Shown: positions 58,639 to 60,799 of the stretch, one piece after another
How positions within the stretch are numbered: position 1 is the first letter of the stretch
Layout: every line of letters starts with the position of its first letter
Source of the DNA: Escherichia phage myPSH1131
Direction: 5' to 3' (one strand)
DNA length: 64,000 nucleotides
Sequence record: MG983840.1
Position numbers and translations under genes: made by a program
Notes under the pieces: generated by a model
What the model saw: the letters and a program-made list of their open reading frames with translations, nothing else
Databases searched by the model: none
Told to the model about the DNA's origin: nothing

Positions 58639-60799
58639 TTAACCTCTATTCAATGAACATTTAGGAGAATTACAATAAACTTGATTCATAGAACCAAGCG
58701 TACAATATCGGAAGTTTCGATGTTGTTCATAAATTGATGCTGCGTCTGCGTGCGTAGCTTTTACGGGCAACAGTTGGATGTACCCGTTCTGGTAACATGT
58801 TGTGTATCCGAGGGTTGACCACATTGCTTTGGTGAAGTCAGTGCTTCGGTTTCCGTCGAAGCTGACGACAGTTTTGCGGAGAGCTGTTCGTGATTCAGGA
58901 AACACACCTGCTTTCTCAGCAGGTTCCTCCTTTTTTGGCTTAGTTGAGATTGCAAAAATACTGTTGCTACGTTTCTCAACATAAGCATCAACAACATCCT
59001 CCAGAGTGATGCCTGTCTGTTTCGCTGAGGAAGGTAATACAGTCATACGACCGATCATATCTTCAGTTACACGTAAAGCGAATTCAGGACGACGGGCGTT
59101 TGTTGTATCTGTTGCTTTAATCCAGACATAACCATCTTTGATCGTAGCATTAGACACTTTCTTCTTTACTTCTACAGCGCAGACTTTACAGATATCTTCA
59201 CCACGAAGACGACTAAGTTCATCATCGAACTCATTCTCTGTTTTAACTTCACCGCAGATTTCACAAACACCAATAGGAGTTTCCTCCTCCTCTTCCTCTT
59301 TAGGTTTAGTCAAACCTTCCAGACATTCAGGATGCCAATAGCACTGATATGCGAAGACTGCTTTAGGTGCATCCTTCCAATCAATGTGCTTGTCACAACC
59401 ACCACAATCACCATGAGAGTGTGCTTCCCAGAATTTACGAGTGATAGTAACGCCATTCTTGTTGACGAAACTATCATTCATGTCAAAAGGGATATCATCA
59501 TCAAAGTCAGCAGTAGTTGACTCAGGCTCCTTTTTCTCCAGAGATGGGTCAACAAAACGACCTGCTGTGATCACTAAACGAACCATAGCATTAACTTCGG
59601 AGATGCAGGATACCGTCCCACGGTAAACAATTTTAGGGTCTTTCAGTGCGTCCTGATAAGCCTTAATGTCTACGTTATGAACATCACCTTCAATGTACTC
59701 TTGAGACTTCTCATCGTAGATATAACCAATCATCTTACCACGAGAAGGAACAGCACCAGCAGTTGCATAAGGAACAAACTCATGCGGAGTGATTTCCACA
59801 GTCATATCGCGGCGAATATCAATGTTTCGATCGCTTGCGATTTTGTTTTGACTTACCACTGCGTTTCTTCGACGAACGTCTGCCGCTGTCACTCCCGGCT
59901 TCGTGTCGTAAGGATTGCTTGTACTGCTTTTTGAGGAACTTTGATAGTTGCTTTGGCTGTAGTTGTTCGAGTAGTAATTGCCCCAACGATTGATTACCGT
60001 AAAAACCGGAAGCTCGTGGGCGACCTCTTCAACCAGAGTCATGCTGTTGTTTGACATATCAAAGATATATTCTGTACCAACTTTGCATTCAAAATGCTCG
60101 TCAATACGGTTCTTGTGAGATCTAGAACGCTTCAGAATCCACATCAACATATCTTCTTCAGAAGCACCAAACCAATCTCTGTTACAACGTGCGAGGTGGA
60201 ATGGACGCTCTTCGTTACGGATGATATGAAGACGATTATCAGAAGCATCATGCCAGATTAAGGTGAAAGCACCATCCAGCTTTTGAATAGTCTCTGCTGC
60301 ACCAATAGTGTTAATAGAGTGGCAGATGTTCTCACTGTCTACCTCGAAGTTTTTGCTGTCAGGTAACAGATCTTGGTCCATCAAGGTTCCATTATGAACC
60401 AGAGTGATGTTACCATGTTGGAAAGGATGGGCGTTCTTGGCGTTAACTGCACCTTTCGTTGCATGACTTATGAACCAGAGTGATGTTACCATGTTGGAAA
60501 GGATGGGCGTTCTTGGCGTTAACTGCACCTTTCGTTGCATGACGACTGTGACCAACAATCCATGAAGGTGCTACAGTGTAAGCTGTTTCACCAGTGGTGT
60601 GCTTCTTGTACTCATCTTGTAGGATGAATGCGAAAGAAGGAAGAGCTTCTTTATAAGTGAAGACTTCCTTAGTGCTTTTACGCTGACCAAAGATACCGGA
60701 GGAATGTTGTCCTCGGAATACTCCAGCATAAAAGAGTTGGTTAAATACGTCTAAATCAGTGCTTGACAGATTACCGCCAGCTAATACGATGCCACAAAT
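58639..60799 (-). pseudogene. class II glutamine amidotransferase-domain protein (~694 aa if intact), disrupted by a 76-bp tandem duplication
   Basis: N-terminus CGIVLAGG (the nucleophile Cys follows the first codon) and NAHPFQHGNITLVHNGTL. An SD AGGTGG precedes an ATT codon where ATG is expected. The duplication causes a frameshift. Confidence 0.55.
60392..60543. repeat. perfect 2 x 76 bp tandem duplication inside the GATase gene
   Basis: Units 60392-60467 and 60468-60543 are identical; 76 is not a multiple of 3. Confidence 0.85.

Follow-up and report, generated by a model that had tools for sequence, protein, structure and literature searches.

The AUU start codon of infC in E. coli mediates autoregulation of IF3. 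Just two non-canonical starts, those of infC and pcnB, are stated to have been confirmed for E. coli (bioRxiv 10.1101/063800), and the Kuravirus gene described here resembles both in having a putative AUU start with a good Shine-Dalgarno sequence. According to a report on Enterococcus faecalis (PMC4447247), an ATT start attenuates expression of ebpA, and annotation pipelines replace this rare initiator with a downstream ATG, a likeness to the present case. The organism and protein differ, and the ATT of ebpA has been tested experimentally.

The closest described relatives of the gene itself are phiEco32 gp83 (YP_001671828.1) and SU10 gp085 (YP_009152936.1), both annotated as 'glutamine amidotransferase / L-glutamine-D-fructose-6-phosphate aminotransferase'. 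They occupy the same place in their module as the gene in the window (the whole 64,000-nucleotide stretch of DNA analysed here), between an amidoligase gene and two small ORFs, and their leader, Shine-Dalgarno sequence and ATT-TGT start are identical to those of the window. However, the window gene differs from both in carrying a 76-bp duplication and, near the C-terminus, a 98-bp patchwork that lacks the CxxC pair (Table 1). More distantly, PurF, GlmS and AsnB share the N-terminal Cys nucleophile and the RxATxG, NAHP, HNG (oxyanion hole) and DSE motifs, but their synthase/acceptor domains are not recognisable in the Kuravirus protein.

Table 1. Features of the glutamine amidotransferase (GATase) locus, in window coordinates
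Feature	Position	Strand	Remarks
Class-II (Ntn) glutamine amidotransferase gene	58639..60799	-	Orthologue of phiEco32 phi32_83 / SU10 gp085; interrupted by the 76-bp duplication and, towards the 3' end, by a 98-bp replacement
98-bp patchwork segment	58706..58803	-	Replaces 44 bp of the natural GATase 3' end
Downstream ATG (MDQDLL...)	60379..60381	-	Start chosen by automatic gene callers; 562-aa model without Cys1
76-bp unit, second copy in translation direction	60392..60467	-	Identical to the first; +1 frame when read from ATT
Premature TAA from the frameshift	60443..60445	-	Product without the Asn-Gly oxyanion-hole motif
76-bp unit, first copy in translation direction	60468..60543	-	Encodes ...(R)HATKGAVNAKNAHPFQHGNITLVH(N), with catalytic core motifs
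TGT, codon of the N-terminal nucleophile Cys	60794..60796	-	C2-G3 invariant in alignment A1
ATT (AUU) initiation codon	60797..60799	-	Same in phiEco32, SU10, Paul, ES17 and IMG/VR loci L016-L020
In-frame TAG, two codons upstream of ATT	60803..60805	-	Bars a longer N-terminal extension without readthrough
In-frame mini-ORF, ATG AAA GGG TTT ACC CTT CAG GTG GAT TAG (MKGFTLQVD*)	60803..60832	-	
Shine-Dalgarno AGGTGG	60808..60813	-	8 nt upstream of ATT; invariant in all kuraviruses examined
Amidoligase gene (phi32_84 orthologue), adjoining GATase	60879..61905	-	Broken by four indels

Identity of the gene

By homology, the gene is the known class-II glutamine amidotransferase of Kuravirus (phiEco32-like coliphages), phi32_83. 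In these phages it is part of a module that also comprises amidoligase, ATP-grasp and gamma-glutamyl-cyclotransferase. Collapsing one 76-bp unit yields a 694-codon ORF whose product is identical to phiEco32 gp83 at 636 of 640 positions. This protein scores 54.9 bits with Pfam GATase_6 (cut-off 27) and 27.3 bits with GATase_7 (cut-off 25), above the threshold in both cases.

A single-sequence search of the PDB with the GATase protein gave no matches, and a profile search matched the glutaminase domains of PurF and GlmS from Cys1 with E = 1e-8 to 1e-7. Across the PurF, GlmS and AsnB chains the E-values range from 1e-8 to 1e-5, with the alignment beginning at residue 1. The profile alignment to PurF/GlmS covers Cys1, RxATxG, NAHP, HNG and DSE. 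The Cys following the ATT aligns with Cys1 of GlmS (1xff) and with Met1-Cys2 of PurF (8w7d), and the catalytic Cys is found at codon 2, directly after the initiator. Besides C2-G3, the invariant positions in alignment A1 are R86, A88, T89, A98-H99-P100-F101, N111-G112 and D129-S130. The glutamine-site and oxyanion motifs are complete in the repaired (collapsed) sequence only, and the window itself contains no intact reading frame for the GATase domain. The C-terminal ~450 residues have no Pfam match and no recognisable synthase/acceptor domain; the RefSeq name 'GlcN-6-P aminotransferase' is therefore unsupported beyond the glutaminase domain.

A conserved AUU as probable start codon

The first-pass annotation described a Cys codon preceded by ATT, with a stop two codons further upstream and a strong Shine-Dalgarno sequence in place, and this description is accurate (the stop is TAG, the Shine-Dalgarno sequence is AGGTGG, and the codon between TAG and ATT, at 60802-60800 on the minus strand, is AAA). 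It offered two explanations, a rare ATT initiator or a mutated ATG, and suggested comparing the start region with homologues. That comparison supports the first option. All kuraviruses examined, with protein identity as low as 82%, share the same ATT-TGT and the same leader (45 to ~60 nt), and ATT is the annotated CDS start in NC_010324 (phiEco32) and NC_027395 (SU10). Distant homologues (L021-L025) have ATG-TGT at the same aligned position, and ATG occurs only in homologues at 64% identity or less; any change from ATG to ATT would therefore be ancestral. A mutated ATG is the wrong explanation for the window, and since ATT is common to kuraviruses, an ATG at 60799-60797 is not expected in sequencing reads. 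The AUU thus stands where homologues have AUG, follows a Shine-Dalgarno sequence, and has no alternative in-frame start upstream. On this comparison the ATT is a conserved, probable start codon and not a lesion. It is already annotated in the GenBank records of phiEco32 and SU10, and is in itself a modest curiosity.

Most records and all Prodigal-type calls choose a different start. The ES17 and Paul annotations and the metagenome gene calls begin GATase at the equivalent of the ATG at 60381-60379, in which case the protein would have 562 aa and the preceding 114 codons would be an untranslated leader. However, these codons evolve as coding sequence. Among close relatives they show 7-14 changes, nearly all of them synonymous, and against L018/L019 there are 44-47 synonymous and 23-25 nonsynonymous codon changes, with substitutions biased to third codon positions. 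This pattern points to strong purifying selection in that frame, and the mostly synonymous, third-position-biased substitutions suggest that the region immediately 3' of the AUU is translated. The same codons carry the Cys-Gly N-terminus, Arg29-Gly30, and the GH.R.AT / AHPF / NG motifs, all of which align with PurF and GlmS, and a protein beginning at MDQDLL would have neither the nucleophile nor the greater part of the glutaminase fold. The ATG of the distant homologues, lying exactly at the position of the ATT, likewise counts against the downstream start. In E. coli reporters AUU initiation reaches only ~1-2% of that from AUG (bioRxiv 10.1101/063800), which favours the downstream ATG. In addition, the GATase protein was detected in SU10 proteomics and entered there at 63.8 kDa, equal to the 562-aa model. 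However, 63.8 kDa is the calculated mass of the annotated model and not a measured one; the calculated mass for 676 aa is 76.2 kDa. Taken together, we consider initiation at the downstream ATG very improbable. Initiation at AUU predicts the N-terminus CGIVLAGGNLSS... and a mass of about 76 kDa. The N-terminal domain encoded upstream of MDQDLL includes the peptides GQHSSGIFGQR and EALPSFAFILQDEYK and the N-terminus CGIVLAGG....

Another conceivable start is the ATG of the mini-ORF at 60832-60830. Readthrough of the TAG would then give an auto-cleaved 12-residue propeptide (MKGFTLQVD-X-KI), or termination would be followed by reinitiation at the AUU. Some class-II amidotransferases, for example B. 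subtilis PurF, do carry a short propeptide. The mini-ORF lies in frame inside the invariant leader, overlaps the Shine-Dalgarno sequence and ends 3 nt before the ATT, and the ~60-nt leader is unchanged although the flanking coding DNA diverges by 20-30%. However, a leader that shows no variation offers no test of covariation or frame conservation, and the mini-ORF's own Shine-Dalgarno sequence is weak (AAGG). In the ATG-start distant homologues the only counterparts of this ORF are ATG-TAA or ATGs in another frame, and the fold of the leader RNA is unremarkable and not significant (z = -1.6). A start at the mini-ORF is accordingly most unlikely, and AUU remains the preferred initiation codon.

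No sigma-70-type promoter is found on the coding strand of the leader. The published consensus of the phiEco32 gp36 promoter is tAATGTAtA (PMC8948821); the leader matches it at only about 6/9 positions, and we rejected this assignment.

The 76-bp duplication

TRF detects a single array at 60392-60543 (period 76, 2.0 copies, 100% matches, score 304), and the window has no other perfect tandem repeat of long period. The two units are also identical by string comparison, as had been claimed for them at first pass, and the repeat does not continue for even one more base on either side, which leaves the borders of the duplication without microhomology. An exact repeat of 76 nt cannot have arisen by chance. 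The first-pass annotation, all of whose coordinates proved correct, had also stated that the duplication shifts the frame; it does so by +1 because 76 = 25x3+1. Translation from the ATT reads ...GNITLVH-KSCNERCS, with the frameshift falling after His110, and stops after 118 codons. The Cys1-containing product of the window gene is consequently predicted to lack Asn-Gly and all downstream sequence.

The sequence was compared with ES17, the nearest genome overall, on either side of the unit. There are 2 differences in 336 nt 5' of it and 24 in 588 nt 3' of it, a change in mismatches that looks like a switch of donor at the duplication.

Megablast of 59900-61100 matched 96 Kuravirus records, and all 30 matches listed align in two pieces. 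Against 50,697 phage records the two-unit form was absent among the matches listed, the best of which is 98.1% identical (1.2-kb region). A junction-centred 80-mer matched 68 records; all 60 matches listed consist of two pieces spanning exactly 76 nt, and the unit is therefore present as a single copy in these 60 records. One copy is likewise found in 17/17 natural loci fetched, in most of which it is 100% identical to the unit. An exact search for the 30-mer at the duplication junction gave zero matches in IMG/VR, JGI metagenomes and GTDB genomes. A native-junction positive control in IMG/VR likewise gave zero, because of an AGT/AGC polymorphism immediately flanking the unit, and is therefore uninformative; kuraviruses are present in that collection. 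The duplication was thus found in none of the related records and loci inspected, nor in the three contig collections. To judge from these comparisons, it is private to the window, and the phage lineage does not naturally carry it.

The window as a mosaic

ES17 (Escherichia phage ES17, NC_070984 / MN508615.2) shares its leader and ATT with the window. Over long stretches, among them 3431-23200 and 56590-58201, the window matches ES17 at 99.8-100% identity. However, the ES17 genome is collinear and intact, contains a single 76-mer, and has its GATase annotated from the downstream ATG (562 aa). In the window, blocks of 99.8-100% identity alternate with extra copies of neighbouring blocks at 87-97% identity and with deletions, and the region corresponding to ES17 52138-53450 is present in three copies. 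The scaffold gene, gp009, gp065 and gp081 are missing, the major head protein is without residues 1-157, and primase/helicase, PhoH, ThyX, pol-exo, the gp025 C-terminus and ATP-grasp are truncated. Since essential genes (scaffold, major head, primase/helicase) are absent or truncated, the molecule as written could not propagate.

Junctions in the window lie at 3431, 23200-23305, 26384/5, 53385-53486, 56490-56590, 58202-58444, 58706-58803, 61145/6 and 62760-62860. Six junctions contain fillers of 98-104 bp, and those with matches consist of 17-57-nt fragments from distant genome sites. The patchwork near the 3' end of GATase changes ...GYCSECFKQIPWRDAESC... to ...GYTTCYQNGYIQLLPVKATHADAASIYEQHRNFRYC..., and fragments of it match a gene that in natural genomes lies about 7 kb away (SU10 62167-62286). 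In the adjoining amidoligase gene the indels fall within about 150 nt and are -80, -1, +8 (GAGGGAAC x2 at 61076-61061) and -4. Neither the 261-aa product of the broken amidoligase gene, by exact look-up in a public gene collection, nor the deletion junction at 3431, searched in public collections, was found.

Inside the diverged blocks mismatches strongly favour third codon positions, so the content of these blocks is natural-type Kuravirus variation. Random simulated mutation as their source was rejected because of this bias. From its gene order and content, the window is evidently a scrambled, non-viable mosaic of an ES17-like genome, and this rearranged mosaic is the main context in which the 76-bp duplication has to be seen.

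Origin of the duplication

The first-pass annotation had considered the duplication recent or artefactual. This agrees with the duplication being private, showing zero divergence, and breaking a conserved ORF among other structural anomalies. Comparison and context indicate that it is most likely a construction or assembly artefact. One specific form of artefact, an untrimmed De Bruijn overlap (k-1 = 76), is not supported, as the other junctions of the window are without such fixed-length overlaps.

The duplication could also be a genuine, very recent error of replication or recombination in a real phage molecule, pseudogenising a dispensable accessory gene. Copies that have not diverged are consistent with a very recent event, and the flanks, in which only 5 of about 1950 nt are private substitutions, show natural-type, synonymous-biased variation. 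The adjoining amidoligase gene is also broken, as decay of the whole module would predict. In culture the phage may be able to do without the amidotransferase module, making an inactivating duplication in a real stock conceivable, and the natural-type variation of the diverged blocks leaves room for a real but defective or recombinant molecule. However, the relatives examined otherwise have an intact module that is under purifying selection, and the duplication is not seen in the records inspected individually, the fetched loci, or the three contig collections. Its borders lack the microhomology of typical slippage duplications, and it shares the window with missing or truncated scaffold, major head and primase/helicase genes. 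In addition, the junction fillers are shredded distant fragments of a kind made by no known natural process. We regard a genuine duplication as unlikely.

The account that we prefer is as follows. In natural genomes translation would start at the conserved AUU, 8 nt 3' of the AGGUGG Shine-Dalgarno sequence, where initiator tRNA would insert fMet. By analogy with GlmS / PurF-type enzymes, removal of Met would expose the Cys as the catalytic N-terminal residue. In the window, an exact tandem copy (76 bp) of the RHATKG...NAHPF...VH(N) core segment inactivates the gene, leading through the frameshift to termination ahead of the Asn-Gly motif. The duplication would be one among many 'jump-back' re-copies, deletions and patchwork fillers in the window, and would stem from the production of the sequence (misassembly, mis-joining or other non-biological construction) rather than represent an evolved or functional element. 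As a whole, this combination of a Kuravirus GATase, an AUU start and an artefactual duplication in a mosaic window is probable.

Implications

The 76-bp duplication is not a subject for biological interpretation; it flags the window as a rearranged composite of Kuravirus sequence, and other findings of duplications from the same window need equal caution. The start codon bears on the annotation of the family. Most Kuravirus records (ES17, Paul and many metagenome calls) drop the catalytic Cys and 114 conserved codons, a systematic annotation error that deserves correction.

The AUU, the invariant ~60-nt leader and the mini-ORF may together form a dedicated translational control, IF3-sensitive or coupled to termination and reinitiation, that sets the dose or timing of GATase. 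We offer this tentatively and think it doubtful; the 76-bp duplication has no role in it. If this is so, the confirmed classes of AUU-initiated gene that are expressed in E. coli would number three. The Kuravirus AUU start with its invariant leader, in a phage of E. coli, would in any case provide a convenient natural case of non-canonical initiation.

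Identity of the GATase gene

The window derives from a Kuravirus, a coliphage of the phiEco32-like type. Among phage records, 96 match the 1.2 kb surrounding the 76-bp duplication, the best being SU10 at 98.1%, and the GATase gene is orthologous to phiEco32 phi32_83 and SU10 gp085. Its neighbours are an amidoligase gene (phi32_84) on one side and two small ORFs on the other; further members of the module are a COOH-NH2 ligase, an ATP-grasp enzyme and a gamma-glutamyl cyclotransferase. Removal of one 76-bp unit gives a 694-codon ORF whose product is identical to phiEco32 gp83 at 636 of 640 residues, excluding the last ~50. 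This repaired protein scores 54.9 bits against Pfam GATase_6 (cut-off 27) and 27.3 bits against GATase_7 (cut-off 25), and a profile combining it with seven homologues matches the glutaminase domains of PurF, GlmS and AsnB in the PDB (E = 1e-8 to 1e-5). These alignments begin at the nucleophile Cys and span the RxATxG, NAHP, HNG and DSE motifs. No Pfam family matches the C-terminal ~450 residues, and the RefSeq name 'GlcN-6-P aminotransferase' is therefore unsupported outside the glutaminase domain. The phiEco32 amidoligase and GATase have been proposed to modify the cell wall and so block superinfection (Iyer et al. 2009, as cited in PMC10580990).

The ATT start codon

The first-pass annotation had offered two explanations for the ATT preceding the catalytic Cys codon, a rare initiator or a mutated ATG. 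ATT-TGT and the 45 nt upstream are identical in phiEco32, SU10, Paul, ES17 and five IMG/VR Kuravirus contigs, a comparison extending to 82–85% protein identity. ATG-TGT occupies the same aligned position only in five more distant homologues (64–33% identity). Over the 114 codons from ATT to the next ATG, substitutions follow the pattern of coding sequence: among close relatives there are 7–14 differences, nearly all synonymous, and the IMG/VR Kuravirus loci L018 and L019 show 44–47 synonymous versus 23–25 nonsynonymous codon changes, with 60–65 of about 90–101 mismatches at third positions. Because a TAG lies two codons upstream, the conserved, motif-bearing N-terminus can be translated only by initiating at ATT. 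From these comparisons, ATT is probably used as a rare initiator; it is a conserved Kuravirus feature, already annotated (the phiEco32 and SU10 GenBank/RefSeq records start the CDS there, giving 676 aa), and no defect of the window. The mutated-ATG explanation is wrong for this sequence, as the same ATT is present in all kuraviruses compared.

The initiator Met of GlmS and PurF-type enzymes is removed, exposing Cys1, and by analogy Met removal from fMet-Cys would expose Cys1 here. AUU is the start codon of infC and pcnB, given as the only two E. coli genes with confirmed non-canonical starts, and supports initiation in reporters at ~1–2% of the AUG level (bioRxiv 10.1101/063800).

About 60 nt around the ATT (about -50 to +8) are invariant in all kuraviruses examined in a wider alignment, including L018 and L019, despite 20–30% divergence in their flanking coding DNA. 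This leader, with its mini-ORF near the AUU, might be a translational control device, a reading we consider doubtful. Among the features tested, conservation is its support: the coding strand of the leader holds no sigma-70 promoter, the match to the gp36 promoter consensus is weak, and folding of the leader RNA gives z = -1.6.

In automatic gene calls, and in the annotations of ES17 and Paul, the gene starts at the downstream ATG, giving a 562-aa model that lacks the catalytic Cys. The majority of Kuravirus records and of gene calls on metagenomes have this start, leaving the Cys and 114 conserved codons unannotated, and the 676-aa form appears only in records that follow the phiEco32 annotation. 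The downstream start is a systematic annotation error. The SU10 protein was detected with 9 peptides, classed as an early gene product and listed at 63.8 kDa (PMC4281155). That is the mass of the 562-aa model; the 676-aa protein has a computed mass of 76.2 kDa.

The 76-bp duplication

A perfect duplication that shifts the frame had been described from the sequence, and direct comparison bears this out, with all coordinates correct. The two units are identical and form the sole long-period perfect tandem repeat found by TRF in the whole window (period 76, 2.0 copies, 100% identity). On neither side does the match continue for even one more base, and the borders therefore lack microhomology. Since 76 = 3x25+1, the frame from the ATT is shifted inside the gene: the product reads ...GNITLVH, then KSCNERCS, and ends at a TAA after 118 codons. 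The duplicated segment encodes the catalytic core, and the Asn-Gly oxyanion-hole motif and everything downstream are lost. Apart from it, just one zero-divergence repeat of substantial length was noticed in the window, a 208-nt dispersed direct repeat (100% identical, 4410 nt apart).

We did not find the duplication in any record, locus or collection inspected individually. All 30 records listed among the 96 matching the 1.2-kb region align in two pieces. With a junction-centred 80-mer, the 60 listed of 68 matching records likewise align in two pieces spanning exactly 76 nt, and thus carry a single copy. One copy is present in 17/17 fetched natural loci, in nearly all 100% identical to the window unit. 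An exact search for the junction 30-mer gave no match in IMG/VR, JGI metagenomes or GTDB genomes; the search is sensitive because the 30-mer lies wholly inside the near-invariant 76-mer.

Coordinates of features in the window and, where stated, in homologous loci
Feature	Position	Strand	Remarks
ATT start	60799-60797	-	then TGT 60796-60794
In-frame AAA, then TAG	60805-60803	-	upstream of ATT
AGGTGG	60813-60808	-	8 nt upstream of ATT
Mini-ORF MKGFTLQVD-stop	60832-60803	-	in frame; overlaps SD; stops 3 nt before ATT
Invariant leader	60790-60850	-
Tandem duplication	60392-60543
Premature TAA	60445-60443
Dispersed 208-nt repeat	47453-47660; 51863-52070
Amidoligase gene (phi32_84 orthologue)	60879-61905	-	adjoins GATase gene; broken by four indels
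Amidoligase +8 indel	61061-61076
Other amidoligase indels	61145/6; about 61115; about 61005
Fillers	23201-23304; 36444-36543; 43970-44069; 53386-53485; 56491-56589; 58706-58803; 62761-62859		first: no match among sequences compared; 58706-58803: inside 3' end of GATase gene, CxxC pair removed
Near-identical to ES17	3431-23200; 56590-58201		16 mismatches; none
Second copy of ES17 20852-23540	23305-26384
Two further copies of ES17 29738-31821	32920-36443
Three copies of ES17 52138-53450	starts at 53854, 55278, 56590
Second copy of ES17 57055-58195	62860-64000
Junctions, first set	~3431; 23200-23305; 24270-24651; 26384/5; 32731-32920; 36443-36544; 41577-41714; 43969-44070; 45959/60
Junctions, second set	51724-51824; 53385-53486; 55167-55278; 56490-56590; 58201-58445; 58705-58804; 61145/6; 62760-62860
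382-bp insert	24270-24651
243-bp stretch	58202-58444		in place of ES17 53750-54072 (gp081 + part of gp082)
Downstream-ATG start, other loci	L012/L013 (ES17) 5957-6377; L003 (Paul) 2983-3324		also gene calls in homologous loci L006, L008, L010, L011

Arrangement of the window and origin of the duplication

The window, aligned to ES17 as the nearest genome, is a mosaic over its entire length, derived from an ES17-like Kuravirus genome. Long stretches 99.8–100% identical to ES17 alternate with extra copies (87–97% identical) of blocks occurring earlier, and with deletions. In the diverged blocks, mismatches show a strong bias towards third codon positions. The content is thus natural-type Kuravirus variation as opposed to random noise; the abnormality is one of arrangement. 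Six or seven junctions carry strikingly regular fillers of 98–104 bp, most of them patchworks of 17–57-nt pieces from distant Kuravirus genome positions, some only 76–79% identical. We know of no natural process that yields such fillers. The deletion junction at 3431 was not found in public collections.

Between two re-copied blocks lies the 382-bp insert, which matches neither ES17 nor SU10 and whose translation resembles an HNH/endonuclease-VII-type nuclease fragment (...DHCHLSGKVRGLLCNNCNRAIG...). The 243-bp stretch has, one 22-nt fragment aside, almost no match to the Kuravirus sequences compared, and contains repeated GTCGTG/TTCGTG-like motifs.

The neighbouring amidoligase gene carries indels of -80, -1, +8 and -4 within about 150 nt, the +8 being a local tandem duplication (GAGGGAAC x2), and the 261-aa truncated product was not found in the public gene collection. 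In a gene audit, scaffold, gp009, gp065 and gp081 were absent from the window, the major head protein lacked residues 1–157, and the gp025 C-terminus, PhoH, ThyX, pol-exo, primase/helicase and ATP-grasp were truncated. A phage with the genome as written could not propagate.

Compared with ES17, the window differs at 2/336 nt 5' of the 76-mer and 24/588 nt 3' of it, so that the duplication behaves like the other 'jump-back' junctions, with a step of 76 nt. From the identity of its units the duplication had been judged recent or artefactual. We regard a genuine, private inactivating mutation as unlikely. The duplication is present in the string and probably arose in the making of the sequence, perhaps by chimeric assembly or mis-joining of mixed Kuravirus strains, or by other non-natural construction. 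It is most likely not biological, and other 'divergent duplication' findings in the window should be interpreted against its mosaic make-up.
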